Source of the DNA: Candidatus Omnitrophota bacterium
GTDB taxonomy: Bacteria > Omnitrophota > Omnitrophia > Omnitrophales > Aquincolibacteriaceae
DNA length: 64,000 bases
Assembly: GCA_016196555.1 (NCBI GenBank)
Contig: JACPXL010000002.1
Span: 17,865 to 81,864, forward strand
Reading direction: 5' to 3'
In this document: positions 12,374-30,022 of the stretch, piece after piece
How the letters are laid out: each line of letters opens with the position of its first letter
Numbering within the stretch: position 1 is the first letter of the stretch
Notes under the pieces: model-generated
Seen by the model: the letters and a program-made list of their open reading frames with translations, nothing else
Told to the model about the DNA's origin: nothing
Database searches by the model: none
Translations under genes and position numbers: made by a program

Positions 12374-13879
12374 ATGAAGAAGGAAATTTTAATTAGTTAT
12401 GACGCCAATGAAAAGCAAGTGGCGATTTTGGAAGATGGGCGCCTAGAAGAATTTTATATTGAGCGTAACGATGCTCAGCGCCTTTTTGGCAATATTTACA
12501 AAGGTAAAGTCAAAACTGTGATTCCTGGAATCGGCGCCGCGTTTGTCGATTTAGGAACCCGCAAAGACGGTTTTTTATATGTGGCGGATGCGCTGCGTTC
12601 ACCCTTCGATATGGACGCTGAATTTGACGAAAACGCCCCGGCCCCGCAGGAAGATAAGCGTAAAGAGCGTTTCAAGCGCATTGACGAAGTCCTCAAAGTC
12701 GGGCAGGAAGTGATTGTTCAAGTGGTTAAGGAGCCTATTCGAAATAAAGGCCCAAGACTGACCACTCATTTTTCCATTCCGGCCCGATATCTTGTGATGA
12801 TTCCGGGGGAGGAAAAAGTGGGAGTGTCCCGCCGGATTGAAGATCGCAAAGAACGTGAGCGCATTCGAAATATTTTTAAATCCATGGAGCTTCCCAAAGG
12901 AGCGGGGTTTATTGTGCGCACGGCAGGGGAAGGAAAATCGGACAAAGAATTCGCCCGCGATATTCGTTACCTGGTCCGATCCTGGAAAAAAATTCACGGA
13001 TCAATGGCCCAGAGCAAAGCTCCAAGCACAATTCACCAAGAGCTGGATCTAGTCGAGCGCGTCATTCGGGATCATTTTACTGAAGATACTGACAGCATTG
13101 TGGTGGACCATAAAGATATTTACCGCAAAGTGCAGCGTTTTTTTAATCTTTATCTGCCGGGCTATAAGGCCAATTTGATTTCTCATGAGGACCGGGTCCC
13201 GATTTTTGAAAAGTACAATATCGAAAAAGAAATCGAAGGGACTTTTCAGAGAGATGTATTTTTGAAATCTGGCGGGCATATTGTGATCGAACAAACCGAG
13301 GGGTTGGTTGCCATCGATGTCAACACAGGAAAATTTACGGGAACCAAAAATTTGGAGGAGACGGTTTATAAAACCAATATGGAAGCCGCTTGGGAAGTTG
13401 CCCGCCAATTGCGTCTTCGCGACGTAGGCGGGATTATCATCATCGATTTCATCGACATGGAACGCGGTGAACACCGCCGCAGCTTGTACAAGACTTTCAA
13501 AGAAGCTGTTCGCCGTGATCGTGCTAAGACCAATATCCTTCAAATGTCCGAATTGGGCCTGGTGGAGATGACACGTCAAAGAATTCGCCCTTCGCTTGAA
13601 AGCGCAGTCTATAACACATGCCCCTATTGCGAAGGAAAGGGAATGATCAAATCTTCGGCAACTATGAGCATTCAAACCATCCGGGAACTGCGAAAGGCCC
13701 TGGGGCATTCGCATGGCCGGATTATCAATGCCGGAGTTCATCCGGAAGTTGCCGAGCGTTTACTTCATCAAGAGAAAAAGGCGATTCACCAATTGGAGCG
13801 GCATTCGCGAAGCCGGATCTTTGTTTTTTCGGATCCTGCGCTTCACCGGGAAGAGCTCAATATTACCTTTGTGAAGTAA
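12374..13879 (+). CDS. rng: Ribonuclease G/E family endoribonuclease
   Basis: N-terminal S1 domain NIYKGKVKTVIPGIGAAFVDLG, catalytic core GLVAIDVNTGKF and IIIIDFIDM. Start at ATG 12374 (MKKEIL). Confidence 0.9.
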   Translation: MKKEILISYDANEKQVAILEDGRLEEFYIERNDAQRLFGNIYKGKVKTVIPGIGAAFVDLGTRKDGFLYVADALRSPFDMDAEFDENAPAPQEDKRKERFKRIDEVLKVGQEVIVQVVKEPIRNKGPRLTTHFSIPARYLVMIPGEEKVGVSRRIEDRKERERIRNIFKSMELPKGAGFIVRTAGEGKSDKEFARDIRYLVRSWKKIHGSMAQSKAPSTIHQELDLVERVIRDHFTEDTDSIVVDHKDIYRKVQRFFNLYLPGYKANLISHEDRVPIFEKYNIEKEIEGTFQRDVFLKSGGHIVIEQTEGLVAIDVNTGKFTGTKNLEETVYKTNMEAAWEVARQLRLRDVGGIIIIDFIDMERGEHRRSLYKTFKEAVRRDRAKTNILQMSELGLVEMTRQRIRPSLESAVYNTCPYCEGKGMIKSSATMSIQTIRELRKALGHSHGRIINAGVHPEVAERLLHQEKKAIHQLERHSRSRIFVFSDPALHREELNITFVK

Positions 13880-13910
13880 AAATTCCGTTCTCTGAAGTTG
13901 GTGCTTAAGC

Positions 13911-13916
13911 TATAAT
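13911..13916 (+). promoter_or_regulatory. Consensus TATAAT -10 box 6 nt upstream of the rmuC ATG
   Basis: TATAAT at 13911-13916 and ATG at 13923. No SD fits in the 6-nt gap, and the -35 is poor. Confidence 0.4.
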
Positions 13917-13922
13917 GCGCTC

Positions 13923-15005
13923 ATGAATTTTATGCTTTTGAGTCTGGGATTTCTTTTTGCTGCAATATTAGGGGCCGTCCTTTTTCGGGTATTTTCAGGT
14001 TCCGCCCGCCAAAAACCTGAGGAAGATACAACCGCCCGCCTTGTAGTCGAATTTCAACGAGAAATCGCGACCCTGCGTACCAGTTTAAACGAACAGGTCC
14101 TGGCCCTTTCCCGCCAAATGAATGAGCAGGCAACTCAAAACACCTCTTTCCTTCAAAAGACCCATCAAAGTTATAATGAAGCAGTAGGGCAGGTCCAGCA
14201 CCGCCTGGGCGAGCTGCAGCATGCGACCCGCTCCATGATTGATATTGGGAAGGATATTTCTTCGCTTCAGCAGATCTTACAATCTCCAAAGCTTCGAGGG
14301 GGTCTTGGCGAGCTTCTGTTAGGAGAACTCCTTAAACAAATACTTCCAGAAGATCATTTTTCTGAGCAATACACTTTTCGCAATGGCCATAAAGTCGACG
14401 CCGTGATTTTTTTAGGACAGGGGATTATTCCGGTTGACGCCAAATTTCCTTTGGAAAATTTCAAACGCATTCTTCAAGCTTCCGCCGATGAAAGCGCAAA
14501 ACAAGTCCGGAAGAGTTTCATTCAGGACGTCAAAAAGCACATCGACGATATTGCATCGAAATATATTCTTCCGGAAGAAAGTACTTTTGATTTTGCCCTT
14601 ATGTATATTCCGGCAGAAAATGTGTATTACGAAACCATTATTAAGGACGAAATGCAGGCAGAAAGTTTAGCAGCCTATGCTCTTCGCCAGCGAGTTGTTC
14701 CCGTCTCTCCGAATAGCTTTTACGCCTATTTGCAGGCCCTGGTGAGAGGATTGAAGGGGCTTCGCATTGAGCGCTCGGCCCAATTAATCCTGGAGAGCCT
14801 CGGGCAGCTCGAAACCGATTTCAAAAAATGTTTTGATGATTTTGAAAAGGTCGGAAATCATATTAACAATGCTGCATCCGCTTATGACAAAACTTTCCGC
14901 CGATTGGACAAGTTGCGCGATAAATTGTCATCCATCGAAACCCGGCGTCCTGAGATACTCTCTGCCGAGCCTCTTGCTCCTCAAAGCAGTGAAAAAGTGG
15001 TTTAG
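13923..15005 (+). CDS. rmuC: DNA recombination protein RmuC
   Basis: N-terminal TM helix, a long coiled coil, KLRGGLGELLLGELL and a nuclease-like C-terminal part (VDAVIFL...IPVDAKFPLE). Confidence 0.85.
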   Translation: MNFMLLSLGFLFAAILGAVLFRVFSGSARQKPEEDTTARLVVEFQREIATLRTSLNEQVLALSRQMNEQATQNTSFLQKTHQSYNEAVGQVQHRLGELQHATRSMIDIGKDISSLQQILQSPKLRGGLGELLLGELLKQILPEDHFSEQYTFRNGHKVDAVIFLGQGIIPVDAKFPLENFKRILQASADESAKQVRKSFIQDVKKHIDDIASKYILPEESTFDFALMYIPAENVYYETIIKDEMQAESLAAYALRQRVVPVSPNSFYAYLQALVRGLKGLRIERSAQLILESLGQLETDFKKCFDDFEKVGNHINNAASAYDKTFRRLDKLRDKLSSIETRRPEILSAEPLAPQSSEKVV

Positions 15006-15042
15006 TTTTTCCCGTCTTTGCTTATTCAGCGTCAGCATATTA

Positions 15043-15717
15043 ATGGGATGTTTTTTCGTTAAAACAGCGTTGGGAGCCGACTTTCTATCCATGCGCGAGG
15101 AAATGATTAAAACCCAATTACGAGACCGCGGCATTCAAGATGAGCAGGTTTTGGCTGTCATGTCAAAAATCCCTCGCCATCAATTTGTTCCGTCTGAAAT
15201 CGAGCATCTGGCTTATGAAGACAGCCCTCTTTCCATCGGTTTAAATCAAACCATTTCCCAGCCTTATATTGTGGCTTATATGACCGAAGCGCTTCATCTT
15301 GAGCCGGGAGAGCGTGTGCTTGAAATTGGAACGGGATCGGGTTATCAAACTGCTGTTCTGGCAGAACTTGCCAAAGAGGTTTATACGGTTGAAATTTTTG
15401 ATCAACTTTCCAAACAGGCCCAACAAGTTTTGAAATCATTAGGCTATCAAAATATTCATTTTCGGGTCGGAGACGGTTGGCAGGGATGGGCGGAAAATGC
15501 CCCTTATGATGCCATTATTGTGACGGCAGCAGCCCCTCAGATTCCACGGGTTTTGGTCGATCAATTAAGGGACGGTGGAAGGATGATTCTGCCCGTCGGA
15601 ACTTTATCTCAACAGCTTATATTAGGAGTTAAAACCAATGGACATTTTCAAAAAATTGAAACGATCCCTGTTCGGTTTGTCCCCCTCATCCAAGTCAAAA
15701 GCGAAGAAAAAAAGTAA
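15043..15717 (+). CDS. pcm: Protein-L-isoaspartate O-methyltransferase
   Basis: ISQPYIVAYM, SAM motif VLEIGTGSGYQTAVLA, C-terminal VRFVPL. The start is uncertain: ATG 15043, or GTG 14989, which would add a signal-peptide-like N-terminus. Confidence 0.85.
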   Translation: MGCFFVKTALGADFLSMREEMIKTQLRDRGIQDEQVLAVMSKIPRHQFVPSEIEHLAYEDSPLSIGLNQTISQPYIVAYMTEALHLEPGERVLEIGTGSGYQTAVLAELAKEVYTVEIFDQLSKQAQQVLKSLGYQNIHFRVGDGWQGWAENAPYDAIIVTAAAPQIPRVLVDQLRDGGRMILPVGTLSQQLILGVKTNGHFQKIETIPVRFVPLIQVKSEEKK

Positions 15718-16075
15718 GGTTAAGGCAAAACCCGTAAAAAAGGCGGCGAAGAAACCAGCCAAAAAATCACCTACCCGAAGTAAGGGGAAGGGTAAGATCG
15801 CTGCTAAACCTGCCAAGGAAAAAATTCAAGGGAAGTTAATAGGCTTAGTCACTCATTATTTCCCTCAAGTGAATGCTGCGGTCGTCAAAATCGATCGTTC
15901 GAATTTAGTGGTTGGAGATCGGGTGCATATCAAGGGACACACAACCGATTTCAAACAAACGCTGAATTCACTTCAAATTGACCGCAAGCCCATCGAAAAG
16001 GCGGGAAAGGGCGATGAAATCGGGGTGGAAGTTAAAGCTCGCGTGCGCATCGGGGACGAAGTCTACAAGTTATGA
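15638..16075 (+). CDS. Lys/Ala/Pro-rich (histone H1-like) N-terminal tail fused to an elongation-factor-like beta-barrel domain
   Basis: KSKAKKKSKVKAKPVKKAAKKPAKK..., then GLVTHYFPQVNAAVVKIDRSNLVVGDRVHIKGHTTDFKQTLNSLQIDRKPIEKAGKGDEIGVEVKARVRIGDEVYKL, which resembles the small 'translation elongation factor-like' proteins. An AGGAG SD precedes ATG 15638. Confidence 0.6.
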   Translation: MDIFKKLKRSLFGLSPSSKSKAKKKSKVKAKPVKKAAKKPAKKSPTRSKGKGKIAAKPAKEKIQGKLIGLVTHYFPQVNAAVVKIDRSNLVVGDRVHIKGHTTDFKQTLNSLQIDRKPIEKAGKGDEIGVEVKARVRIGDEVYKL

Positions 16076-16389
16076 GCCGAGAATTTTTACGCACGTATCA
16101 CGAGTATGACATCGAAGAAGTCAAAAAACACCTTTTGATTTGGGGAGATTTGACAGCAGATTGTGCTTCGTGCCGCGCTCTTGGTTTAGATGGCTATACC
16201 GTGAAGGTATGTCCTCAATGCAGCACTTCTTTTAAATACATCACGAGTCGTAGAAGCGAAGAACATTCATCCGAACGGTTTCAAATTGTCCGCCGCGCAA
16301 AGGATAAGCGGCCGGAATTGATTTTTATCGATTATTCGGATTACACGAAGACCCTCGGTCAAAAGAAGGCGAGAGATTTTTTTGCTTAA
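16072..16389 (+). CDS. Hypothetical protein with a CxxC-N12-CxxC zinc-ribbon-like motif
   Basis: CASCRALGLDGYTVKVCPQC. ATGA overlap with the upstream gene. I recognise no family. Confidence 0.5.
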   Translation: MSREFLRTYHEYDIEEVKKHLLIWGDLTADCASCRALGLDGYTVKVCPQCSTSFKYITSRRSEEHSSERFQIVRRAKDKRPELIFIDYSDYTKTLGQKKARDFFA

Positions 16390-17590
16390 GCATCACGCGC
16401 ATTCCATCGCATGGATTGCTGGATTTATTTATTTTGCCCAAGGGGCGCTGGGAGTTTCTGGAGTGGCCTTGCCGCTTTATCTGAGGGCCCAGGCTTGGAG
16501 TGTCACAGAAGTGACCATGCTGATGTCGATTGCGGCTATTCCCTGGATTTTTAAAATCTTTTACGGACTCCTTTCTGATTGCCTTCCTCTATTTTCTTAC
16601 CGGCGCAAATCCTATTTGATTCTGGCCCTTCTTTGCGGTGCGGGAGGGTGGTTTATGATGGTTGTTTTGCCCCCTACCAAGGAATGGGTCCTTTTGGCGC
16701 TTTTAATCGCCAATACCGGCTTTGCGGCTACGGATGTGGTCACGGATGGGCTGGTAGTAGAGCATTCCACCACTATAAGCAGTCAAGTCTATCAAAGTAT
16801 TGCCTGGGGATCGCGCAGCTTTGGCGCTATGATAGGCGGAATTTCAGGCGGATGGCTGGCGGCTCATACTTCGCCGGATTTTATTTTTATTTTAACTATG
16901 TCCTTGCCTTTGATTGTGATTGCGGCGGCTTCAAGAATTCATGAAAAGAAAATGGAAAGCAGTCCGTTTTCTTCGGCGCTGACGCCTTTCAGACGCTGCG
17001 GCGAACTTCTCAAAACGAAAAATTTACAATGCTTCATGGGGATTTTGCTTGTTGCATCGCTCTCATCTTCTTTCGGGATGCCGTTTTTTTTCTTCATGAA
17101 AGAGACGCTGGGATTTCCGGAAGTCTTTTTAGGTTTTCTTTCCAGCTTGGCCTGGTTTGGCGCCATGATTGGAAGTGTTGTTTATCTTAAATTTTTGCGG
17201 AAAGTTTCGCCTAAACGGATTCTTAGCTGGGCGATTATTTTAAATTGTATTAATATTTTGAGCGCGCTCCTGATCGTCAGCAAAGTCAGTGCTTTTGTGA
17301 TTGTTCTTGTAGGAGGAGCGCTGGGATGTTTGGTCATGCTTCCTTTAATGTCGACAGCCGCGATTTTGACGCATCATTCGCAGGTTGAAAGTGCCATCTT
17401 TGCGATTCTCATGAGTATTTTCAATTTTGGTCAAATTGCCGCTGGCATGAGCGGGGCCAGACTTTATAGCCTCGTCGGATTGCGGCCGTTGATTTTGATG
17501 GCCGGTCTTGTGGGGCTGCTTGGCATTTTATTTGTGCGCCGGCTGGATTTTATTCCTTCATCAACCTTTCCAAAACCTTCGACTGAATAA
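16382..17590 (+). CDS. MFS transporter, possibly folate-biopterin transporter (BT1) family
   Basis: About 12 hydrophobic helices. The LLSDCLPLFSYRRKSYLIL loop resembles the FBT signature. TTG start overlaps the upstream gene by 8 nt. Confidence 0.65.
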   Translation: MLKHHAHSIAWIAGFIYFAQGALGVSGVALPLYLRAQAWSVTEVTMLMSIAAIPWIFKIFYGLLSDCLPLFSYRRKSYLILALLCGAGGWFMMVVLPPTKEWVLLALLIANTGFAATDVVTDGLVVEHSTTISSQVYQSIAWGSRSFGAMIGGISGGWLAAHTSPDFIFILTMSLPLIVIAAASRIHEKKMESSPFSSALTPFRRCGELLKTKNLQCFMGILLVASLSSSFGMPFFFFMKETLGFPEVFLGFLSSLAWFGAMIGSVVYLKFLRKVSPKRILSWAIILNCINILSALLIVSKVSAFVIVLVGGALGCLVMLPLMSTAAILTHHSQVESAIFAILMSIFNFGQIAAGMSGARLYSLVGLRPLILMAGLVGLLGILFVRRLDFIPSSTFPKPSTE

Positions 17591-17595
17591 ACGTC

Positions 17596-18927
17596 ATGGA
17601 TTTAAAACAAGGAACAGCTAAAACGGCTTTTGATATTGCTGAGCGTCTTCGTGACGGCGGGCACACGGCTTATTTTGCCGGTGGATGTGTACGCGATTTT
17701 TTGAGAAAACAAATTCCTCAGGATTTTGATATTGCTACAACGGCAACGCCCGATCAGGTGGAAAAACTCTTTTCTAAAACGGTCCCGGTTGGAAAGCAAT
17801 TCGGCGTCATGCTGGTCATTGAGAATCAGAAAAATTTCGAGGTAGCCACTTTCCGCAGTGAAGGCGGTTATCAGGATGGGCGGCATCCGACGCAAGTAAA
17901 GTTCAGCGCGCCGGAAGAGGATGCGCTGAGACGCGATTTTACGGTCAACGGCATGTTTTATGATCCCTTTGCCCAGAAGGTGATCGATTATGTAGGGGGC
18001 AAGGAAGATATTCAGCGGCGGCTTATTCGTGCGATTGGCGATCCGGCCAAGCGATTTGAGGAAGACAAGCTCCGGCTGCTTCGTGCTATTCGTTTTGCCT
18101 CCTTTCTTGGTTATGAAATCGAATCCACGACCTGGCAGGCTATTCGCCAGCGATCAAATGAAATTCATCAGGTAAGTCCGGAGCGGATACGGGATGAGAT
18201 GATCAAGATTTTTACCCGTCCAGGCGCTGCCCATGGTTTTGGTTTGCTTTCTGAATCGGGGCTGATGAAGGAGATTTTGCCGGAAATCGAAGCCATGAAA
18301 AAGGTGGATCAGTCACCGGATTATCACCCGGAAGGAGACGTGTTTGTCCATACGAAGCTTTTGCTTGAAAAGCTAAAAGAACCGTCATTGGCGCTTGCTC
18401 TTGGGGCCTTATTCCATGATGTGGGGAAACCTCCGACTTATGCCATCCGCGAAGGCCGCATTACTTTTTATGAGCATGCACCGCTTGGCGCGAAGATGAC
18501 CGAAGAGATTATGCGGCGTCTGAGATTTTCTAATCAAGAGACCGATGCCGTTTGTTCCTGTGTTGAAAACCATATGAAATTTGCCGACGTTCAGAAAATG
18601 CGATCGGGTAAACTCAAACAATTCATTGCCCGCCCAAATTTTTCTGAAGAATTAGAGCTTCACCGCATTGACTGTCTTTCGAGCCACGGCAAACTGGATA
18701 ATTACGTTTTTCTTAAAAATAAACTCGCTGAATACGCTGAGGAAGACTTAAAACCTAAGCCAGCGATTACGGGACATGACCTTATGGCGCTTGGGATGAA
18801 GCCTGGGCCTAAAATGAAGCAAGTTTTAGAAGCTATTTATGAAATGCAGCTTGAAGGAGCGGTGAAAGACCGTGAACAGGCGCTCGCGGCGGCCAAGAAT
18901 AAAATCAAGCAACTGGATAAGGGTTAG
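17596..18927 (+). CDS. cca: CCA-adding tRNA nucleotidyltransferase with an HD domain
   Basis: GGCVRDFLL..DFDIATTATP, the RRDFTVNGM motif, and downstream HD residues (HDVGKP). Confidence 0.85.
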   Translation: MDLKQGTAKTAFDIAERLRDGGHTAYFAGGCVRDFLRKQIPQDFDIATTATPDQVEKLFSKTVPVGKQFGVMLVIENQKNFEVATFRSEGGYQDGRHPTQVKFSAPEEDALRRDFTVNGMFYDPFAQKVIDYVGGKEDIQRRLIRAIGDPAKRFEEDKLRLLRAIRFASFLGYEIESTTWQAIRQRSNEIHQVSPERIRDEMIKIFTRPGAAHGFGLLSESGLMKEILPEIEAMKKVDQSPDYHPEGDVFVHTKLLLEKLKEPSLALALGALFHDVGKPPTYAIREGRITFYEHAPLGAKMTEEIMRRLRFSNQETDAVCSCVENHMKFADVQKMRSGKLKQFIARPNFSEELELHRIDCLSSHGKLDNYVFLKNKLAEYAEEDLKPKPAITGHDLMALGMKPGPKMKQVLEAIYEMQLEGAVKDREQALAAAKNKIKQLDKG

Positions 18928-18928
18928 G

Positions 18929-19438
18929 ATGGCTTCCTCCCGATTTTTTCTTTTTGTTTTCTCTGCATTTTTCCTTCATGCGGCAAGCGGAGTGGTTGTG
19001 CCTCCTGTATTAGCGGCAAATGATTCGGTCGATGCAATTACGGAAAACGGAACGGTGATTTTGAATAGCGGGCTTAAAATTCAATTGGCTGGACTTAGTG
19101 TGCCTCCCGAATCGATTCCGATTCTTAATTCACTTCTTCGCCGTCGCGAAGTTCAAATCAAATATGATAAATCCTTGAACTCTGGCGATGCTGAAACGCC
19201 AAAGTCGGCTTATGTTTTTGTTGAGACCCGGCAATCTTCAATGCCGATTAAAGAACGTTCGGGGCCGCGTAAGAAACGGGTTATGGTTAATGAACTTTTG
19301 CTTTCCATGGGAGCGGCAAGGGTGTCGGAAAACTTGGTTTTTAAGAAGAAAAAGGATTTTCTTGAGATTGAAAAAATAGCTCAAACCAAAGGGGAGGGGA
19401 TTTGGTCTTATGAAACCCCGGGGGAGATGAAGAAATGA
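18929..19438 (+). CDS. Secreted thermonuclease (SNase)-like OB-fold protein, possibly non-catalytic
   Basis: Signal peptide MASSRFFLFVFSAFFLHAASG. IQLAGLSVPPE resembles the SNase vRLxGIDxPE motif with Arg replaced, and there is a C-terminal EKIAQTKGEGIWS. The similarity is weak. Confidence 0.4.
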   Translation: MASSRFFLFVFSAFFLHAASGVVVPPVLAANDSVDAITENGTVILNSGLKIQLAGLSVPPESIPILNSLLRRREVQIKYDKSLNSGDAETPKSAYVFVETRQSSMPIKERSGPRKKRVMVNELLLSMGAARVSENLVFKKKKDFLEIEKIAQTKGEGIWSYETPGEMKK

Positions 19439-19986
19439 AAAATCATGCCATGCTTACCGTGTTCGGAAAAGACCGGCCTGGAATTATTGCCGCTGTGACA
19501 GAGGTTTTGTTCCAGCAAGGCTGTAATTTAGAGGATGTGAGTATGACCGTTTTGGAAGGTGAGTTGGTGATGATGACGGTGGTGGGATTTGACAAACGCC
19601 GTCAGAAAAAAATCCTGGAGGTTCTTCAGCGGGTACTGGAAAAAAAGATGCGCTTTAATTTTTCTTGGAGAGAACTGTCCGGCGCCATTCATCGAGGAGA
19701 AAAACACACGAAAAATTCTGAAAGTTATATTATCACATGTGCGGGCAAAGACCGGACCGGGATTGTTTATCGTGTCAGCCGTTTGATGGCCAAATGCGGC
19801 CTTAATATCAGCGACTTAAACTGTAAAATTTTGGGTTATGGACCAAACGCTGTTTATACCATGCTTCTTGAAGTCGACGTTCCGCGCGCTTTTAGTCTTT
19901 CTAAATTAGAACGCTCTCTTAAAGTTCTGGCGAAATCGCTCAAAATCTCCATCGATCTCAAGCCTCTGGAACGCATTGAGTTATAA
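19435..19986 (+). CDS. Tandem ACT-domain protein (GcvR-like)
   Basis: Two ACT-like repeats: LTVFGKDRPGIIAAVTEVLFQQGCNLEDVS and ITCAGKDRTGIVYRVSRLMAKCGLNISDL. Confidence 0.7.
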   Translation: MKNHAMLTVFGKDRPGIIAAVTEVLFQQGCNLEDVSMTVLEGELVMMTVVGFDKRRQKKILEVLQRVLEKKMRFNFSWRELSGAIHRGEKHTKNSESYIITCAGKDRTGIVYRVSRLMAKCGLNISDLNCKILGYGPNAVYTMLLEVDVPRAFSLSKLERSLKVLAKSLKISIDLKPLERIEL

Positions 19987-20003
19987 AAGGCCGGACTTCT
20001 TTT

Positions 20004-20495
20004 ATGCCGCTATTAAAAATTCGCCTTTTTCCGGATCCAATTTTGCGTAAACCAGCCAAAGCCGTTACCCAATTCAATAAGCTTTTGGAGAAGCAGATTG
20101 ACGACTTGGCCGGGGCTATGAAACATCAGCCGTCCGGAATTGGCATTGCAGCTCCTCAAGCGGGTATTTCGCTTCAATTAGCCATTGTGGATGTTTCTAG
20201 CCGCATTCCTGGGGCCACACGGCATGTTCTGATCAATCCGGAAATCCTGGAAATCCATACGCCGCGCCTGAGCCGGGAAGGCTGTATGAGCTTACCGGAG
20301 TATACCGCGAATCTTAAACGGTATGACTGGATCAAAATTCGATTTCAGGATTTGGACAGGCGGTGGATTATTTTAACCGCCTCGGGGATTGAAGCGGTTT
20401 GCATTCAGCATGAAATTGATCATCTGCAGGGAAAGCTCTTTTTGGATCGGGTAGCCTCGCTTAAAACCGATATGTTTCCGCGAACTAAGCCGTAA
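20004..20495 (+). CDS. def: Peptide deformylase
   Basis: GIGIAAPQ, EGCMSLP and HEIDHLQG motifs. Confidence 0.95.
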   Translation: MPLLKIRLFPDPILRKPAKAVTQFNKLLEKQIDDLAGAMKHQPSGIGIAAPQAGISLQLAIVDVSSRIPGATRHVLINPEILEIHTPRLSREGCMSLPEYTANLKRYDWIKIRFQDLDRRWIILTASGIEAVCIQHEIDHLQGKLFLDRVASLKTDMFPRTKP

Positions 20496-20573
20496 GCCCG
20501 CCTTAAAAGCCTCTTGAGTCACTTTATTTAATCCCGTCAAACTCATATCAAAAACGCTACTCGCGCTTAGTAT

Positions 20574-20601
20574 GAGTCCTATAATGTATGTTATGTAAAG
20601 T
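20574..20601. other. dif: dif-like XerC/XerD recombination site (GAGTCCTATAA-TGTATG-TTATGTAAAGT)
   Basis: The 11-6-11 architecture shares ATAATGTAT.TTATGT.AA.T with E. coli and B. subtilis dif. It lies in the convergent spacer where the strand of all genes switches. Confidence 0.7.
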
Positions 20602-20627
20602 AGCTAATAGAGAGAAAACGGTGAAAT

Positions 20628-22658
20628 TTACCAGTCTTTTCCAACGCGTTCGCCCTGAGGATTGGCGGGAGGTTTTCGAAGGTCCTGCAGCTCTTTTTCC
20701 GAGTCTTTTAAGGCATCCAGAACTCTTAATGCCTCAGGCATGGTCATCTGCCCTTGAAGCGGTTTGGGGCCTTTCTGCAGGTTTTCCTGGCCGCTTTGAG
20801 GCTGCTTTTGATCGCCTTCTTCGGGTTTAGGTTGGGATGGTTGTTCTTCTTTTTCGCCCGATTCAGGCTGATTTTGCTGTTGCTGCTGATTCTGCTGCTC
20901 TTGGTCCTTTTGATCTTGGTTTTGTTGATCCTGAGGCTGCTGCTTCTGGTCCTCTTGATCTTTTTGCTGATTTTGTGACGGCTGTTGGTCCTGATCCTGC
21001 TTGTCTTGCTTGTCTTTTTCTTGATCCTGTTCGGATGATTGCGATTGCTGCTGGTCTTGCTGGTCCTTTTGGTCCTGATTCTGTTGATTCTGATTCTGCT
21101 GCTGGTCCTGGTTTTGCTGTTGATTCTGCTTTTGTTCCTGTTGCTGCTGATCCTTGTTCTGCTGTTGAGGCTTTTGCTGCGGCTGTTGTTTTTTACGTTC
21201 CTGATCTTTCTTTTCAAACATGCTTTTTTGTTTTTGCAGGAATTCTAAATTGTATTTTGCATCGGGATCTTTCGGGTTGATTTCCAAAGCATTTTGATAA
21301 GCTTCGATTGCCTTGTCAAAATTACCAAGACGATATTGAACGTTCCCATAATTGTAATAGGCGTTGGCTTTGAGTACTGGATCTTTGATCTTGGATTCCG
21401 ATTGAATAACTTTTTCTAGATTCTGCAAGGCGGCTCTAAACTCATCAGTTTGATATAAAGTGGCCGCCAGATTGTAACCCACAACGGGATCGTCCGGATT
21501 TTTAATCTGGGCTTGCCGGTAATTTTCCAGCGCCGTCTGATATTTTTTATCCGAAAAATTCTTATTTCCTTCTTTGATTAATGTTTCGGAAGATTTAAAG
21601 AATCCGCAAAAGAGAAAGAACGCGTAAAGCAGCATGAGGGCCTGAGCGCGCTTTTTGTGAATCCGCCGCACAAAACTTTCCAGTGCTAAAAAAATGAGAG
21701 CAAAAAATAAAAATAATTGAAAATGATCTTCCCTTTCAGTGATTGTGCGTTCTTTGAATTTCTTTTGCCCAATTCCCTCTAAATGCTTCAAGATAAGACT
21801 AACTTCCTGTTCGCCCGGGCTCGCAGTAATGTAAACACCGCCGGTTTCCGAAGCTATTTTTTCTAAAATGGGCTGGTTCAGTTTGGTGATCACGATTTGG
21901 CCTGTGTCATCCTTTTTGAAGCCGGTTCGCTGTCCCGTTTCAGATTTAAGCGGAATGGGTGCTCCTTGCGGGGTCCCGAAGCCAATGGTGTAGATTTTTA
22001 ATCCAGCCTGCTTAGAAGCTTCCAGTGCGGCCTCAATGCCCCCTTCGTGGTCTTCCCCATCGGTCAAAAGAATAATTACTTTGTGCTTTAAGGTTTTATC
22101 AGGAAACGAATGAATGGCCAGCCGAATGGCCTGATCCAATGAAGTGCCCGGCACGGGGATATAGCCGGTATCGATAGCGTCCAAGAAGAGCAAAAAGGCT
22201 GAATAATCGAGTGTTAAAGGGGCTTGGAGGAAGCTAGTCCCGGCAAAAGCGACCATGCCCACCCTATCCCCTTTTAGGCGGTGAATGAAGTTTTTAATCG
22301 TCAGCTTGGCCTTTTGAAGGCGGTTAGGGGCAATATCTTCAGCCAGCATGCTTAGGGATGTATCCATAAGAAAAACGATGTCTATTCCTTTGCGCTCGAC
22401 CTTTCTTTGCTCTTCACCCCATTGCGGGCGTGAAAGGGCCAAAATGGAAAAAAACAAAGCTAAAATCAGACATAAACTTCGGAGCCGCCATTCGGACGAA
22501 CGATAATTCGGAATTAGCTTTTCATAAAAAGTGGACAATAAAGTAAAACGGGAAAGGCGCTTCTGCCATAAATGCCGGGAATAAATCAAAATTCCGGCAA
22601 GCACCGGGATGGCGAGAAGTCCTATAAAGGCTTTAGGCTCAAAAAATTGCATAATCAT
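20628..22658 (-). CDS. Fused BatA/BatB-like VWA protein plus BatC-like TPR region, with a long Q/N/D/K-rich C-terminal segment
   Basis: N-terminal TM helices, a VWA MIDAS motif (DIVFLMDTSLSM), a TM helix, TPR repeats (YNLAATLYQ..., ANAYYNYGNVQYRLGNFDKAIEAYQNALEINP), then about 150 aa of QQNQDQ-type low complexity. Confidence 0.8.
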   Translation of the reverse strand: MIMQFFEPKAFIGLLAIPVLAGILIYSRHLWQKRLSRFTLLSTFYEKLIPNYRSSEWRLRSLCLILALFFSILALSRPQWGEEQRKVERKGIDIVFLMDTSLSMLAEDIAPNRLQKAKLTIKNFIHRLKGDRVGMVAFAGTSFLQAPLTLDYSAFLLFLDAIDTGYIPVPGTSLDQAIRLAIHSFPDKTLKHKVIILLTDGEDHEGGIEAALEASKQAGLKIYTIGFGTPQGAPIPLKSETGQRTGFKKDDTGQIVITKLNQPILEKIASETGGVYITASPGEQEVSLILKHLEGIGQKKFKERTITEREDHFQLFLFFALIFLALESFVRRIHKKRAQALMLLYAFFLFCGFFKSSETLIKEGNKNFSDKKYQTALENYRQAQIKNPDDPVVGYNLAATLYQTDEFRAALQNLEKVIQSESKIKDPVLKANAYYNYGNVQYRLGNFDKAIEAYQNALEINPKDPDAKYNLEFLQKQKSMFEKKDQERKKQQPQQKPQQQNKDQQQQEQKQNQQQNQDQQQNQNQQNQDQKDQQDQQQSQSSEQDQEKDKQDKQDQDQQPSQNQQKDQEDQKQQPQDQQNQDQKDQEQQNQQQQQNQPESGEKEEQPSQPKPEEGDQKQPQSGQENLQKGPKPLQGQMTMPEALRVLDALKDSEKELQDLRKPPANPQGERVGKDW
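20750..21200. repeat. Cryptic low-complexity CAG/CAA/GAT-rich coding repeat (CTG/TTG/ATC-rich on the + strand)
   Basis: Open in several frames on both strands (track ORFs 20744-21217, 20754-20978, 20837-21280, 21039-21248). It encodes the Q/N/D/K tract of the Bat-like protein. Confidence 0.9.
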
Positions 22659-22664
22659 TTCCTA

Positions 22665-23651
22665 TCAATTGCTGGGCGGGGTCGCCGCACTTTCGCTTGA
22701 AGAATTTTCATGAAATATAGGCCGTGACTGTTCCACAATTTCTTTGGATTGCTTATTGATGTGAATGATTTCAGCGGGTTCTGGGCGCCATTTGGCAAAT
22801 TTTGCCAGGTCCGCTGCCGATAACACGGCCTCGATTTTTTCCCGCAGGGTTAATGGGATTTCCTTTTCTTTCAGGTCTTTCAAAACTTCATAAGTTGTCG
22901 ATTCGCTGGCAAGGATCGAATATCTTTTCTCAAAATAAGTACGAAGAATTTCTGACAATCTTAAATAATATTCCTTAATTTTTCCCCGGCGGAGAAGATC
23001 TGAATCAAAAAGTTCATTGAGTTGAATGATTGCCTGTTCATCCGCCGACAAGGCCGGCTCGCTGGAAACCATAGCTTTTGTTTTCGAAGCAAACCGGCGG
23101 TACGCAATGACTGCAAGCATGGCCGCGATAAGCAAAACAGCGGCAATAAGAACTACAATTCCACGATTGGCCATCGCCAGCACGGATTTGATCCCGCGTA
23201 TATCATTTTTTTCTTTTGCCCCGTCAACGCTTTGCACCGAAAGAAACAAGCGATTAGTTTGTAGCTTTTTGACCTCTCCTCCGGCGTCTTTATCCCGGTA
23301 TTGAATCTCCACCGGATCGATGATGAACTGGCCAAGGCGGAATGAAGTTAAATGAAACCGGCGGCCTTCCACAATCCATTTCCCTTCTTTTTTTCTAATC
23401 TCTTCGATTTTCTGGATTTTAAGGGCATCATTGACTGGCGGTGGCACATTCGAAAGAATTTCAATCGAAGGCGCGTGATGAATAGTTACGGTGTATTCAA
23501 CGGGATCACCGATGGTGATAAAGGCGCGGTTAATCTCGGCTTTGACCGTAATCGGTGATTCTGATGCGCTGCGACTAGGGCTGGGTTGAAGTAAGAGTAA
23601 AACTCCGAACCAAAGGAGACCGTAAAAAAAATGATGCATCTTCAATTTCAT
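22665..23651 (-). CDS. BatD-like N-terminal domain + TM helix + DUF4381-like C-terminal domain protein
   Basis: Signal peptide, VKAEINRAFITIGDPVEYTVTI, DIRGIK, a TM helix (VVLIAAVLLIAAMLAVIAY), and a C-terminal LRLSEILRTYFEKRY...AADLAKFAKWRP. The family assignment is from memory of Bat operon components. Confidence 0.55.
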   Translation of the reverse strand: MKLKMHHFFYGLLWFGVLLLLQPSPSRSASESPITVKAEINRAFITIGDPVEYTVTIHHAPSIEILSNVPPPVNDALKIQKIEEIRKKEGKWIVEGRRFHLTSFRLGQFIIDPVEIQYRDKDAGGEVKKLQTNRLFLSVQSVDGAKEKNDIRGIKSVLAMANRGIVVLIAAVLLIAAMLAVIAYRRFASKTKAMVSSEPALSADEQAIIQLNELFDSDLLRRGKIKEYYLRLSEILRTYFEKRYSILASESTTYEVLKDLKEKEIPLTLREKIEAVLSAADLAKFAKWRPEPAEIIHINKQSKEIVEQSRPIFHENSSSESAATPPSN

Positions 23652-24523
23652 AATCTTTTTTCGCGTATTTTGAAAAAAGACATTAAAGGTTCAACATAAG
23701 ATTTGTCGGTTTGGATGTCAATTTTATCAACGCGCAATGTTTTGAAGAGTTTATCCAAAGCCTCATCGCGTGCGCCGATTCGTTTTTTCATATCCTCACG
23801 AAAAGTCACCGTTGAAGTATCGACGACCCGATGTTCTCCGGTTTCTCGGTCTTCGAGCTCTAAAATCCCGAGCGATGGGATTTCTTCTTCCCGTGGATCA
23901 CGCAAATGAATCGCGATCACATCATGTTTGCGGCTAAGAATTTTCAAAGGTTTTTCATAATCGTTGTCCAGAAAATCGGAAATTAAAAAGATGACGGCCG
24001 TACGAGTGAGGAAGTTATTAAGGTACTCCAAAGCAGCGATCATCCGAGTCTGGCGGCGTTTGGGCTGATAACAAAGGATTTCCCGCACGACGCGCAGGAC
24101 ATGCATCCTTCCCTTTTTGACCGGAATAAATTTTTCAACCTGGTCCGTGGAAATCATGAGTCCTGTCTTGTCATGATTTTTCACCGCAGCAAATGCGAGG
24201 ACCGCAGTGATTTCAGCAGCGATTTCTGATTTTAATTTTTCCGCGCTTCCAAAATATTGAGATCCGGACATATCCACCACAAAAATCACGGTGAGTTCGC
24301 GTTCCTCCACAAACTTTTTAACAAAGGCTTCTTGGGATCGTGCCGTTACATTCCAATCAATGGTACGGATATCATCACCGGGTACATATTCCCGAACATC
24401 GGCAAACTCCATCCCGTGCCCTTTGAAGACAGAAACATATTCTCCGCCAAAAAGATCATTGACGAGCCGTGTGGTCCGGATTTCGATATTCCTGATTTTT
24501 TTGAGAATTTCTTTGGGAATCAA
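23648..24523 (-). CDS. DUF58 domain protein (MoxR partner)
   Basis: FADVREYVPGDDIRTIDWNVTAR signature. 4-nt overlaps with both neighbours. Confidence 0.9.
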   Translation of the reverse strand: MIPKEILKKIRNIEIRTTRLVNDLFGGEYVSVFKGHGMEFADVREYVPGDDIRTIDWNVTARSQEAFVKKFVEERELTVIFVVDMSGSQYFGSAEKLKSEIAAEITAVLAFAAVKNHDKTGLMISTDQVEKFIPVKKGRMHVLRVVREILCYQPKRRQTRMIAALEYLNNFLTRTAVIFLISDFLDNDYEKPLKILSRKHDVIAIHLRDPREEEIPSLGILELEDRETGEHRVVDTSTVTFREDMKKRIGARDEALDKLFKTLRVDKIDIQTDKSYVEPLMSFFKIREKRL

Positions 24524-25509
24524 GGGACCTCGACTTGATCAAAAATGCGCTTAATAATTTGCTCCGAGGTGATGTCTTCAGCTTCGGCTTCATAAGTGAC
24601 CAAAACACGATGCCGGAGAACATCGGTTCCGATTTGTTTCACATCATCGGGTGTTACATACCCCCTCCCCTTCAGGAAGGCATGGGCCTTTGAGGCAAGT
24701 GTCAACATAATGCTGGCGCGCGGAGAAGCACCGTAGGCAATAAGCGGTTTCAAACTTTCCAGGCGGTATTGGGCAGGATCACGGGTGGCAAAGACCAGGT
24801 CGAGAATATAATCTTTGACCTTCTCATCGACATAAATTTGCGCCATGAGCTCCCGCAATTTCATAAGCTCCGCGGGATCCATCACCGGATTGACCTCAAT
24901 TTCTTTTCCGGTCGACATTCTCTCCAGAATTTCTTTTTCTTCCTTTTTGTTGGGATAAGTGACGATGAGTTTCATCATGAACCGGTCAACTTGGGCTTCC
25001 GGCAAAGGATAAGTCCCCTCTTGTTCGATTGGATTTTGAGTGGCTAAAACCAGAAAGGGTTTGGGAAGCGGAAAGGTTTTTTCGCCGATCGTGACTTGCC
25101 TTTCCTGCATGGCTTCGAGCAAAGCGCTTTGGACTTTGGAGGGGGCGCGGTTGATTTCATCGGCCAGAATAATGTTAGCAAAAATCGGACCTAATTTGGT
25201 TGAAAATTGTCCGTCTTTCGGGTTATAGACGAGAGTTCCAATCACGTCTGCCGGCAAAAGATCGGGCGTAAATTGAATGCGCTGAAATTTAGTATGAAGC
25301 GTGCGCGCAAGAGTGCGGACCGATGTGGTCTTGGCAAGACCTGGCACTCCTTCGATTAAAATATGGCCGTCAGCAAGAAGAGCAACCAAAAGCCGTTCGA
25401 TGAGATAAGTTTGTCCGACAATGGCTTTACCAATCTCTCGCTGCAAGATTTGAAAAGCACCGGTCGCATCTTTAATTTTTGCGTTAAGTTCCTTAATGGC
25501 TGTATCCAT
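24520..25509 (-). CDS. moxR: MoxR-family AAA+ ATPase
   Basis: Walker A GVPGLAKT, Walker B ILADEINRA. A GGAGG SD lies upstream. Confidence 0.9.
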   Translation of the reverse strand: MDTAIKELNAKIKDATGAFQILQREIGKAIVGQTYLIERLLVALLADGHILIEGVPGLAKTTSVRTLARTLHTKFQRIQFTPDLLPADVIGTLVYNPKDGQFSTKLGPIFANIILADEINRAPSKVQSALLEAMQERQVTIGEKTFPLPKPFLVLATQNPIEQEGTYPLPEAQVDRFMMKLIVTYPNKKEEKEILERMSTGKEIEVNPVMDPAELMKLRELMAQIYVDEKVKDYILDLVFATRDPAQYRLESLKPLIAYGASPRASIMLTLASKAHAFLKGRGYVTPDDVKQIGTDVLRHRVLVTYEAEAEDITSEQIIKRIFDQVEVP

Positions 25510-25531
25510 AATGCTGCATCCTCCTTGATGA

Positions 25532-26413
25532 TCAGGTTCTTAGGTTAGGTTCCAGGATCTTTTTTCCTTCGACATAGTTTAAAATATCGTTTTGAAGTTG
25601 TTTATATTCCGATGAAGGCAAAGAAGTGCCGGAAAAACGTATTTCTTCAAACCGTACAAAAAGATTTTTTAAACGACTGAGTTCTTCAGTAGAAATATTC
25701 TGAGCAGATAAGGCCTTTAAAATTTCCGAATCACTTAGATTAGGGCGATCCAGGTGATGGCGCTGAATAATGAACCGGGAGCATAGATTGATTAAATGAT
25801 TTGCTTTTTCAGGTGAAGAATAGATTGCAATATCATTGATTGCCGCATGAATGGCATGAGCGATTTTATCGTCTGGAGCCTCAGAATTTTCTTGTGAAAG
25901 CGTTTTGCCGGATTTTTTAAAAAATATCCTACTGATTAAAAAGATGATTAAAATTAAAACTACGCCGAGGGCAATAGCTGGCCAGGCCAAACTTAAAAAT
26001 CCGGTCTTTTTAATTTGGATTTTTAGCTGCGGAACGTCAAAGCTAGCGGCTTTTTGAGACTGGGTATCGATCAAGGAAACTTTAAAAGCTTGGATGGATG
26101 CAGGGCCGGGTTTAATCGGGGCCAATTCAATTTTATAGGTTTTTCTTATCCATGGCTCTTCGCCTTGGATGAAACTTTCTTGCGACTCCCCCTGGCCGCT
26201 CAAAGTCAGATTCTCTAACTCAAAATTGGGTAAGGCGACAGAGTAATTAGCTTCGGATTGGGCCCAGGAAATTCGAATGGATAGCGTAACGCCCTCCCCC
26301 GGCTTTGCCGAGGTCTGAGATAATTTAGTATTAAACTGCGGAGCAGCGTGCGCGTTTGCGGAAAAATAGACAGAAAAGAAAATAGCGGTAACCAAAAGCT
26401 TAAGGGGATTCAT
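25532..26413 (-). CDS. Second BatD-like N-domain + TM helix + DUF4381-like protein (paralog of 22665-23651)
   Basis: Signal peptide, AKPGEGVTLSIRISW, a TM helix (ALGVVLILIIFLI), and a C-terminal LKNLFVRFEEIRFSG. Confidence 0.5.
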   Translation of the reverse strand: MNPLKLLVTAIFFSVYFSANAHAAPQFNTKLSQTSAKPGEGVTLSIRISWAQSEANYSVALPNFELENLTLSGQGESQESFIQGEEPWIRKTYKIELAPIKPGPASIQAFKVSLIDTQSQKAASFDVPQLKIQIKKTGFLSLAWPAIALGVVLILIIFLISRIFFKKSGKTLSQENSEAPDDKIAHAIHAAINDIAIYSSPEKANHLINLCSRFIIQRHHLDRPNLSDSEILKALSAQNISTEELSRLKNLFVRFEEIRFSGTSLPSSEYKQLQNDILNYVEGKKILEPNLRT

Positions 26414-26421
26414 AACGTGTT

Positions 26422-26450
26422 ATTGTAACGACACTTAGAATCAGGATCAA
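26422..26450 (-). promoter_or_regulatory. Sigma70-type promoter TTGATC-N17-TACAAT, with the -10 ending 8 nt before ATG 26413
   Basis: On the minus strand, TTGATC is at 26450-26445 and TACAAT at 26427-26422. The 8-nt gap (aacacgtt) contains no SD. Confidence 0.5.
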
Positions 26451-26451
26451 C

Positions 26452-26495
26452 GAAAAAGAAACGACCTCTGAAGAATGATCCCCAGAGGTCGTTTC
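26452..26495 (-). terminator. Rho-independent terminator of dnaK
   Basis: On the minus strand, GAAACGACCTCTG pairs with CAGAGGTCGTTTC (13 bp) across a 12-nt loop and is followed by TTTTTCG. Confidence 0.85.
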
Positions 26496-26511
26496 TGTGG
26501 CAGGGCGTCAA

Positions 26512-28443
26512 TTATTTTGATTTATTCTTGTCTTTGCCCTCTTCATCGACGACTTCATAGTCTGCATCGACAACATCTTCAGGTTTTCCTGTTTTTCCCG
26601 CCGTTTCGGCAGAGGCCCCTGAAGGAGCCGCTTTCTTTGCGGCTTCTTCATAGACTTTTTGCGCAATCGTATGGGAAGCGGCCGAGAGCTTTTGCATGGC
26701 CTGCTGGATTTTCTCTACAACATCTTCTTTCAAAGCTTCTTTCGCCTCTTTCAGGGCGTCTTCGACACGTTTTTTTTCATCCGCGGAAATTTTTTCTCCG
26801 TGCTCGGCAACACTTTTTTCCGTGGCATAAATCAAATTGTCGAGCTGATTTCTCGAGGTAATGACTTCGTGTTTCTTTTTATCCTCTTCGGCATGCTCTT
26901 GGGCCTCTTTGACAAGTTTATCGATCTCGTTTTTGGCAAGGCCGGATGAAGATTCAATTCGGATCCTCTGTTCTTTACCCGTGCCTAAATCTTTTGCAGA
27001 GACATGCACGATACCATTGGCATCGATGTCGAAAGTGACCTCGATTTGAGGAACTCCGCGCGGCGCAGGAGGAAGTCCTTCCAAATTAAAAATCCCAAGC
27101 ATGCGATTGTTGGTTGCCATTTCGCGTTCCCCTTGCAGAACTTTTACGGTCACAGCCGTTTGATTGTCAGCTGCAGTTGAGAAAATCTCGGATTTTTTAG
27201 TTGGAATCGTTGTATTCCGTTCGATCAATTTGGTCATCACTCCGCCGAGTGTTTCAATTCCAAGGGAAAGCGGCGTGACATCCAAAAGCAAAATGTCCTT
27301 AACGTCGCCCTTAAGAACTCCTCCCTGAATGGCGGCGCCTACGGCCACAACTTCGTCCGGATTGACGCCTTGATGAGGATCTTTTCCGAAAAGCTTTTTT
27401 ACTTTTTCAAGCACAGCCGGCATGCGGGTCTGACCGCCGACTAAAATGACTTCATCAATGTCTTCGGGTTTTACACCAGCATCTTTCATGGCTCTTACAC
27501 AAGGCCCGACTGTTCGTTCCACTAAATCCCCCACTAATTGTTCCAGCTTTGCGCGGCTGAGGCTGATAAGCAAATGTTTGGGTCCGGAAGCATCGGCAGT
27601 GATAAACGGCAAATTGATTTCCGTATTTTGGGAACTTGAAAGTTCGCACTTGGCTTTTTCGGCGGCTTCTTTAAGGCGTTGGAGGGCCATTCTATCTTTA
27701 GCCAAATCAATACCATCAGTTTTTTTGAACTCTGCAATAAGCCATTCAATGATTTTTTGATCAAAGTCATCACCGCCTAAATGAGTGTCCCCGTTCGTGG
27801 CTTTGACTTCAAAAACACCTTCGCCGATTTCCAGAATTGAAATATCGAAAGTTCCGCCGCCAAGATCGTAAACCGCAATGGTTTCATCTTTCTTTTTATC
27901 GAGGCCGTAAGCCAGTGATGCTGCGGTGGGTTCGTTGATAATTCTGAGAACCTCAAGACCGGCAATGGCACCGGCGTCTTTGGTCGCTTGACGTTGAGAA
28001 TCATTAAAGTAGGCCGGAACCGTAATTACGGCTTGTTTAATGGATTCGCCCAAATAGGCTTCTGCATCAGCTTTTAATTTTTGCAGTACCATCGCTGAAA
28101 TTTCAGGCGGAGTATAATCCCGGTTTTCCATGGGGATATGAATGACCGCTTCATGATGTTTTCCTGCTTTGGTTTTAAAGGGAACTAATTTACTCTCCTG
28201 CTCGACTTCTTCGAATCGACGGCCGATAAAGCGTTTTGCACTAAATACGGTATTTTCCGGGTTGGTAATGGCTTGCCGTTTGGCTGCTTGACCGACCAAA
28301 CGGTCCCCTGTTTTTGTAAATGCGACGACGGAGGGAGTGGTTCGATTACCTTCTTTGTTGGGAATAACCTTCGGTTCCGATCCTTCCATGACTGCCATGC
28401 ACGAATTTGTCGTTCCTAAATCAATTCCTAAGACTTTAGCCAT
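26512..28443 (-). CDS. dnaK: Molecular chaperone DnaK (Hsp70)
   Basis: [17 protein letters not shown] and [11 protein letters not shown] signatures. An AAAGGAGA SD is present. No grpE or dnaJ is adjacent. Confidence 0.97.
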
Positions 28444-28495
28444 TTTGATTTCTCCTTTTTAGATTAAGACAGTTTTTAAGACTCGCCTCTATAAG

Positions 28496-28512
28496 ATCAA
28501 TATCCATGCCAA
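28496..28512 (-). promoter_or_regulatory. Sigma54-like -24/-12 element TTGGCATGGATATTGAT upstream of dnaK (the -12 element is GA rather than GC)
   Basis: On the minus strand, TGGCA then N6 then TTGA, with the GG-to-TTG spacing of the TGGCACG-N4-TTGC consensus. It lies about 55 nt upstream of the dnaK ATG. Confidence 0.35.
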
Positions 28513-30013: not shown

Positions 30014-30022
30014 AGGTTTTAG

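Follow-up and report, generated by a model that had tools for sequence, protein, structure and literature searches.

A dif-type site between convergent gene blocks of an Omnitrophota contig as a probable target of chromosome dimer resolution in the terminus region

The closest described systems for the resolution of chromosome dimers are dif of Escherichia coli, which is served by XerC, XerD and FtsK, and dif of Bacillus subtilis, which is served by CodV and RipX. Carnoy and Roten reportedly predicted dif sites computationally in many phyla in 2009. According to the survey of Kono et al. 2011 (PMC3025954), dif is conserved across phyla, with less variation in the XerD arm than in the XerC arm, and is located near the shift point of the GC skew. 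The Omnitrophota were outside this survey, and for the Planctomycetes the prediction of dif failed (PMC3025954). Here we describe a dif-type site in a 64,000-nt stretch of an Omnitrophota contig, in the following referred to as the window. All coordinates are window positions unless another contig is named. A direct check of the sequence revealed the 28-mer GAGTCCTATAATGTATGTTATGTAAAGT at 20574-20601 on the plus strand, i.e., GAGTCCTATAA-TGTATG-TTATGTAAAGT. The first-pass annotation had given the same sequence and position and had suggested a dif-like XerC/XerD site at a probable replication terminus. The suggested site is supported by a footprint in five orthologous spacers and by the consistent behavior of such motifs across at least 120 species. 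We concluded that the 28-mer is very probably a chromosomal dif, the target for dimer resolution of the XerC/XerD type, and that it lies at the architectural terminus. As such it is an ordinary, canonical dif in the terminus region of a phylum outside the published dif surveys.

The site is located at the position where the gene orientation flips. The first-pass annotation had counted 23 plus-strand genes on the left and 41 minus-strand genes on the right of a convergent spacer of 132 nt, and our recount agreed with these numbers. The 41 minus-strand genes, counted to position 61912, comprise 39 open reading frames (ORFs) of at least 100 amino acids and in addition acpP and rpmF. The 28-mer has the 11-6-11 layout and the inner dyad ATAA-N6-TTAT, which together represent the classical dif architecture.

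Contigs encoding def homologs with 60-75% identity to the def of the window were considered as relatives. In four of these contigs (L003, L004, L007, and L008), def and the bat operon converged from the left and the right, respectively, as in the window, and each of them harbored a version of the 28-mer: AAGTCTTATAATGTATGTTATGTAAAGT in L003, ACGTCCTATAATGTATATTATGTAAAGT in L004, TCGTCCTATAATGTATCTTATGTGAAGT in L007, and GAGTCCTATAATGTATATTATGTTAAAT in L008. The centre and the XerD arm (TTATGTTAAAT) of the L008 site were identical to those of E. coli dif. The alignment of the five spacers (window and four relatives) contained 22 invariant columns, and every one of these columns was within the 28-mer. 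Outside the 28-mer the spacer was not conserved, with a mean column identity of 36%. By sequence comparison the 28-mer appears as a clean phylogenetic footprint. The L003 ortholog of the Bat-like gene to the right of the site was 78% identical. In L005, which has a def with 59% identity, there was no convergence downstream of def and no site at this position.

The lineage consensus derived from the five orthologous spacers is RMGTCYTATAATGTATNTTATGTNAART. In other Omnitrophota loci, T also occurred at the third base and C at the next-to-last base. Among the Omnitrophota, the first two to three bases of the left arm varied, and GTCYTATAA was kept. In the rest of the 28-mer, two right-arm positions and the final base of the central hexamer were variable. 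This final, sixth base was A, C, or G (TGTATA, TGTATC, TGTATG), and the other five bases of the hexamer were fixed. A second Omnitrophota dif variant, ACTTCCTATAATGTATCTTATGTTAACT, recurred in L056, L059, L070, L083, L095, and other loci, which are non-syntenic with the window. The synteny around the site also showed some variation. A yqeY gene (PF09424) was located between dif and the bat operon in L004 (974-1423 of this contig), L007 (11139-11585), and L008 (10765-11211). Since yqeY was absent in the window and in L003, the first gene to the right of dif was gained or lost within the lineage.

The motif class was also followed in other genomes. A scan of one genome per species with the 25-nt degenerate pattern TCYTATAATGTATNTTATGTNAANT gave matches in at least 120 species, with one match counted per stretch. 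The matches listed, to which the following numbers refer, included at least 22 Omnitrophota species and furthermore Ignavibacteria, Planctomycetes, Bacilli/Tenericutes, Rickettsia, Bacteroidota, Paraglaciecola, and others. The location was intergenic for 119 of 120 matches. Flanking genes were convergent in 63 of 93 cases, compared to 79 of 632 (12.5%) control pairs of adjacent genes from the same loci. The genes were also oriented on the motif over the loci as a whole, with 84% on the plus strand to the left and 84% on the minus strand to the right. For the Omnitrophota subset, 12 of 15 flanking pairs were convergent, and 86% of the genes on the left and 95% of the genes on the right had the corresponding orientation. 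ORFs in the fetched loci were called by a longest-ORF heuristic, and counts of anti-oriented genes are noisy.

Genes for XerD-like proteins (35-46% identical to E. coli XerD) were present in the same 8-kb block at 16 of the 120 loci listed, none of them from Omnitrophota. In these loci (L009, L026, L030, L031, L038, L044, L063, L064, L082, L097, L098, L099, L105, L115, L118, and L122) the XerD-like gene was within a few kb of the motif. They belong mostly to Bacilli/Tenericutes-like metagenome-assembled genomes (MAGs), one to Ignavibacteriaceae, and some are labelled Muribaculaceae. In the complete chromosome of Phytoplasma oryzae (511,268 bp), the match was at about 248.5 kb, near the half-way point. 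A viral collection of 2.9 million contigs contained a single match to the pattern. Since the motif class is intergenic, is located between convergent genes, has XerD-like genes nearby, and is rare in viruses, it behaves as has been described for chromosomal dif sites (PMC3025954). The sole viral match was found at 354-378 of the IMG/VR contig L134 (5.5 kb), which may represent an element that integrates at dif or host DNA misclassified as viral. Planctomycetes MAGs with a dif-type pattern were L021, L027, L033, L045, L061, L076, and L128, and the pattern was mostly located between convergent genes.

The position at the terminus is supported by the gene architecture. The complete genomes of Omnitrophota reportedly have a GC skew as expected for two replichores, with almost all genes of a replichore on one strand (bioRxiv 10.1101/2023.11.21.568195). 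Since each Omnitrophota replichore has a nearly single gene orientation, the convergent flip indicates the terminus. This one-strand-per-replichore architecture is the strongest support for the terminus claim.

Several observations weigh against a dif site at the replication terminus, and they concern the raw identity to known sites, the recombinase genes, the polar words, and the skew. Compared to E. coli dif (GGTGCGCATAA TGTATA TTATGTTAAAT), the 28-mer matched at 6 of 11 positions in the XerC arm, 5 of 6 in the centre, and 9 of 11 in the XerD arm. For B. subtilis dif (ACTTCCTAGAA TATATA TTATGTAAACT), the numbers were 7 of 11 for the left arm, 4 of 6 for the centre, and 10 of 11 for the right arm. 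The match counts of the first-pass annotation were exact. Of 200 shuffled windows, 15 (7.5%) reached the identity of 20/28 to E. coli dif, and 2 reached the identity of 21/28 to B. subtilis dif. Both raw identities were only marginally above chance, which is weak evidence. Since raw identity is a weak statistic, the case for dif rests on the conserved core together with the comparative evidence. The core ATAA-N6-TTATGTNAANT occurred once in the window, with 0.04 occurrences expected. The 28-mer was the top match in the window for both the E. coli and the B. subtilis reference, and no second position of the 64 kb was within seven mismatches of it. The matching positions were those conserved among dif sites, and the 28-mer agreed with the XerD-arm consensus TTATGTnAAnT, accompanied by a more variable XerC arm.

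A tblastn search with XerC and XerD from E. coli resulted in no match in the window or in the fetched Omnitrophota loci. Likewise, neither a tyrosine recombinase gene nor an ftsK gene was seen in the window or in these loci. Across the PVC superphylum, with Ca. Omnitrophota included, ftsK is reported to be conserved (PMC12283558). The literature on Omnitrophota together with XerD revealed nothing specific.

The word GGGNAGGG is the consensus of the E. coli FtsK-orienting polar sequences (KOPS). All six copies in the window pointed toward the site, and their number was not elevated (5.45 expected). Across 31 Omnitrophota loci, 51 copies pointed toward the motif and 4 away from it. Even in anti-oriented genes the word pointed toward the site, with a ratio of 2:0 for Omnitrophota and 8:0 for other phyla. 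All octamers composed of six G, one A, and one N were polar to 64-93%. Since such permutations of the word had almost the same polarity and the word itself was not enriched, we considered its polarity as consistent evidence only. Both the bulk skew and the polarity of G-rich words are confounded with gene orientation.

The bulk GC skew of the plus strand was +0.064 up to 26.5 kb and -0.013 after this position. The maximum of the cumulative G-C curve and the best breakpoint were at 26,505 and not at 20.5 kb. The change in bulk skew stemmed from the first and second codon positions, where the skew reverses when the gene orientation does. The coding-strand skew at third positions was +0.11 for the genes to the left of the site and -0.10 for those to the right, and at four-fold sites it was +0.04 and -0.22, respectively. 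Since the coding-strand skew differs between the two chromosome arms, there is no sign change at silent sites of the plus strand at the 28-mer. A single coding-strand skew for both arms, as predicted for a symmetric terminus at dif, was rejected by 40-48 log-likelihood units. At the dif-type loci of other phyla, as for the matches listed above, the bulk GC skew was +0.09 to the left and -0.07 to the right of the motif, and at these loci of other phyla the third-position coding-strand skew was about zero in both arms. Because of the latter, the bulk skew switch over a few kb is largely gene orientation and not independent evidence. The first-pass annotation had named GC skew as a check on the proposed terminus. 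The bulk skew did fall, but its breakpoint was at 26.5 kb and the four-fold G/C skew was not reversed at the site. For the probable terminus, the outcome of this check was mixed.

The genes on the right were C-rich at synonymous sites of the coding strand over a block that appeared to end at about 55-64 kb. The four-fold skew came back to about zero near the right edge of the window and in four further genes on L131, which resembled the left arm again. This contig lies beyond the right end; Logan contigs extended the window by about 2.4 kb to the right and about 1.4 kb to the left. The difference between the arms was a pure swap from G to C: the share of C increased from 0.264 to 0.341, the share of G decreased from 0.282 to 0.220, and A and T were unchanged. 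Each of the eight four-fold families and every two-fold family showed this swap, and the C-rich skew was present in 35 of 40 genes of the right arm, irrespective of function. The best boundary of the block was at 54.5-64.5 kb, and a boundary in view was better than none by 5-7 log-likelihood units. The same asymmetry was found in L008 (10765-20385), which belongs to another genus. When the Omnitrophota loci were pooled, whether syntenic with the window or not, it was weaker, and 94 loci of other phyla did not show it. The offset seems to be conserved between the genera represented by the window and L008. If the genome has 1.6-2.1 Mb, like the complete Omnitrophota genomes, the offset of 35-45 kb corresponds to about 2-3% of its length. 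A tolerance of 5% of genome length was applied for agreement between dif and the skew shift point (PMC3025954), and an offset of this size would be within this tolerance.

The simplest reading of the skew is that the left fork may pass dif and that the forks meet 35-45 kb further on the side of the XerD arm. Another strand-asymmetric process may also have caused the block. It is conceivable, although we lean against it, that dif is functional and that the forks meet about 35-45 kb to the right, at about 55-64 kb or beyond, with about 35 minus-strand genes replicated head-on. The dif site and the gene orientation would then define the architectural terminus, and the mutational terminus would be displaced. 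This fits the four-fold skew, which was +0.04 on the left, -0.24 from 20.6 to about 56 kb, and about zero at the end of the window and in L131, and also the preferred boundary, the recurrence in another genus, and the acceptance of offsets of a few percent of genome length (PMC3025954). Because the G-to-C swap is pure and occurs in all codon families, a strand-wide mutational effect fits better than codon selection. On the other hand, about 35 housekeeping genes, among them dnaK, recA, and fab genes, would be head-on in a phylum that is otherwise almost entirely co-directional, and the four-fold A/T skew showed no matching strand effect. Moreover, the skew boundary rests on few genes at the edge of the window, the comparison of co- and anti-oriented genes within the arms of other loci was noisy, and the direction of replication is not directly readable from the sequence. 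We consider it unlikely that in this lineage the gene orientation and the polarity of G-rich words change at the dif site itself and the silent-site bias changes 35-45 kb further on the side of the XerD arm, which would mean that forks routinely pass dif and copy about 35 housekeeping genes head-on. A speculative cause of the offset is a long-standing replichore imbalance, e.g., from the giant genes of 90-257 kb of this phylum lengthening one replichore. The displacement of the skew does not weaken the assignment of the 28-mer as dif; the forks may, however, meet elsewhere than at 20.5 kb.

The other explanations concern the site itself. A single recombinase of the XerS, XerH, or XerA type instead of a XerC/XerD pair is improbable as its partner. 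One protein could bind both arms even though they differ, but the classical 11-6-11 match, the consensus-like XerD arm, and the occurrence of the E. coli hexamer in relatives argue for a pair, and the 28-mer does not resemble the distinct difSL and difH types. In addition, the gene for a single recombinase usually adjoins its site, and there was no tyrosine recombinase gene within 20 kb to the left or 43 kb to the right. Elements that integrate at Xer sites, plasmids, and phages carry dif-like sites, and an inverted copy of the XerD arm with 9 of 11 matches is present upstream at 20521-20531. Nevertheless, an attachment or dimer-resolution site of such an element is very improbable here: the window contained only chromosomal housekeeping genes, including dnaK, alaS, recA, and smc, and the genes flanking the site are syntenic across several genera. 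Over the whole window, only one full site and no gene of an integrase, a phage, or a plasmid was seen, the pattern matched only once in the viral collection, and the upstream word was not conserved. We give hardly any credence to the view that the 28-mer has no role in recombination and is either a bidirectional terminator or an AT-rich, partly palindromic sequence that arose by chance. Convergent spacers are often palindromic, and the identity to E. coli dif was reached by some shuffled windows, as given above. However, the 28-mer was kept across genera while its flanks diverged, its core is rarely expected, the spacer had no terminator-like hairpin, and the motif recurs at convergent junctions across phyla, sometimes close to XerD-like genes. 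The terminator reading was rejected, since a scan of 20300-20800 gave no promoter-like or terminator-like site and since the 28-mer is conserved.

A dif site at 20574-20601 would act as follows. By analogy to E. coli and B. subtilis, one recombinase would bind to the left arm GAGTCCTATAA (XerC side) and the other to the right arm TTATGTAAAGT (XerD side). The FtsK translocase would arrive at the site at the septum and activate XerD for the first strand exchange across TGTATG. XerC would then resolve the Holliday junction, and chromosome dimers would be resolved at cell division. We infer binding and catalysis as well as the presence of Xer proteins and FtsK in this genome and the ending of replication in this region.

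The first-pass annotation had also pointed to an inverted repeat of 7 bp (ACTCATA and TATGAGT) that overlaps the XerC-side arm. The repeat exists, but a stretch of 351 nt contained three perfect inverted repeats of 7 bp, including this one. Since equal repeats occur nearby and it was not conserved in the relatives, we attribute it to chance and not to a meaningful feature. The word ACTTTATTTAA at 20521-20531 is the inverted copy of the XerD arm mentioned above and lies 59 nt upstream of this arm. No second arm adjoins it, and it was not conserved in the relatives. It is probably a chance occurrence; alternatively, it could be a remnant half-site.

Scans of the whole window for Rfam families and tRNAs gave no match. 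The spacer therefore contains no known RNA and no attachment site of the tRNA type. Two independent assemblies from other sequencing runs spanned the junction from def over the 28-mer to the start of the bat gene with an identical site. A chimeric assembly at the junction was rejected, since these assemblies span it and the relatives have the same arrangement. The features of the locus are compiled in Table 1.

Table 1. Positions of the dif-type site and of associated features in the window
Feature	Position	Strand	Basis or remark
dif-type site, 28 bp	20574..20601	+	conserved in orthologous spacers; core pattern unique in the window
Putative XerC-binding arm GAGTCCTATAA	20574..20584	+	placed by alignment position to E. 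coli dif
Central hexamer TGTATG (strand-exchange region)	20585..20590	+	5/6 compared to E. coli TGTATA
Putative XerD-binding arm TTATGTAAAGT	20591..20601	+	9/11 E. coli, 10/11 B. subtilis
Convergent intergenic spacer, 132 nt	20496..20627	.	contains the 28-mer
Inverted repeat of 7 bp, ACTCATA / TATGAGT	20541..20577	.	overlaps the XerC arm; judged as chance
def (peptide deformylase), last gene of the plus block	20004..20495	+	PF01327; protein 100% identical to a peptide deformylase of a Candidatus Omnitrophica MAG
BatB/BatC-like VWA and TPR protein with Q-rich tail, last gene of the minus block	20628..22658	-	Pfam VWA, VWA_2, and TPR families
23 co-oriented genes (type IV pilus cluster, rng, rmuC, pcm, cca, ACT, def)	83..20495	+	ORF calls, family matches
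41 co-oriented genes (bat operon, dnaK, his/trp, alaS, recA, smc, fab, recG, tpiA, pgk)	20628..61912	-	ORF calls, family matches
Genes C-rich at synonymous sites on the coding strand	20628..56256	-	four-fold GC skew about -0.24
Two GGGNAGGG words, toward the site	15785-15792, 19391-19398	+	KOPS-like polarity
Four GGGNAGGG words, toward the site	24663, 26292, 30096, 50685 (span 24663..50692)	-	KOPS-like polarity

The Bat-like VWA/TPR protein encoded to the right of the site has a long low-complexity tail rich in Q, N, D, and K (window 20700-21300, residues about 480-640). This tail gives rise to shadow ORFs on the opposite strand, e.g., at 20837-21280 (147 amino acids). Because automatic calling took such shadow ORFs as plus-strand genes, the convergent arrangement was masked on the short contigs L001 and L002.

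The plus-strand block contains a cluster resembling type IV pilus and type II secretion genes at 1906-12231. It comprises two adjacent T2SSE ATPase genes (2416-4203 and 4200-5924), genes for a platform protein and a pilin, pilM/N/O-like genes, and a secretin gene (10534-12231). The same cluster also preceded rng, rmuC, and cca in L005, L007, and L008.

The site provides a terminus marker for an uncultivated phylum for which fragmented metagenome bins are almost the only source of knowledge. A contig with the 28-mer at a convergent flip can be placed opposite the origin, and this helps to close or orient Omnitrophota genomes. The site also indicates that these bacteria, which are very small and possibly predatory, resolve dimers by the standard Xer/dif route. 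The consensus RMGTCYTATAATGTATNTTATGTNAART and the 25-nt pattern also recover candidate dif sites in Planctomycetes MAGs, where the earlier survey (PMC3025954) failed. The displaced silent-site skew, if real, is a natural case for studying how dif, gene orientation, and the meeting of forks are coupled.

Among the known systems, those with a single recombinase (XerS/difSL, XerH/difH, and archaeal XerA/dif; PMC5357621, PMC2958812) have the same function, i.e., dimer resolution at a terminus-proximal site. Their sites differ in the sequence or the spacing of the arms, and the recombinase gene is usually located next to the site; neither of these features was seen in the window. Xer sites of integrative mobile elements exploiting Xer (IMEX) and of plasmids (CTX-type attP/attB, cer, psi) have a second site that brackets foreign genes or accessory sequences on a plasmid or phage, which was not the case in the window. 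The dif sites predicted by Kono et al. 2011 (PMC3025954) follow the same consensus logic and have the same location near the terminus as the site in the window. Compared to the predicted dif sites of the surveys, the synonymous skew switch of the window appears displaced from the site.

By its sequence the 28-mer is closest to the dif types of Firmicutes and E. coli. With E. coli dif it shares the length of 28 bp, the 11-6-11 layout, the inner ATAA/TTAT dyad, five of six central positions, and nine of eleven positions of the XerD arm. Both sites are intergenic and located at a convergence of gene orientation, with GGGNAGGG words pointing toward the site. The outer XerC arm differs (6/11), and the hexamer of the window ends in G. 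With B. subtilis dif it shares ten of eleven positions of the XerD-side arm, seven of eleven of the XerC-side arm, and the common TCCTA-AA; both genomes also show strong co-orientation of genes with replication. The centre matches at only 4/6 and the phyla are unrelated, and unlike in B. subtilis, the gene-strand bias of Omnitrophota was reported to be near total (bioRxiv 10.1101/2023.11.21.568195). What the locus adds to the known dif sites is a lineage consensus in which the last base of the hexamer varies, a synteny of def, dif, and the bat operon, with or without yqeY, across genera, and an apparently displaced silent-site skew.

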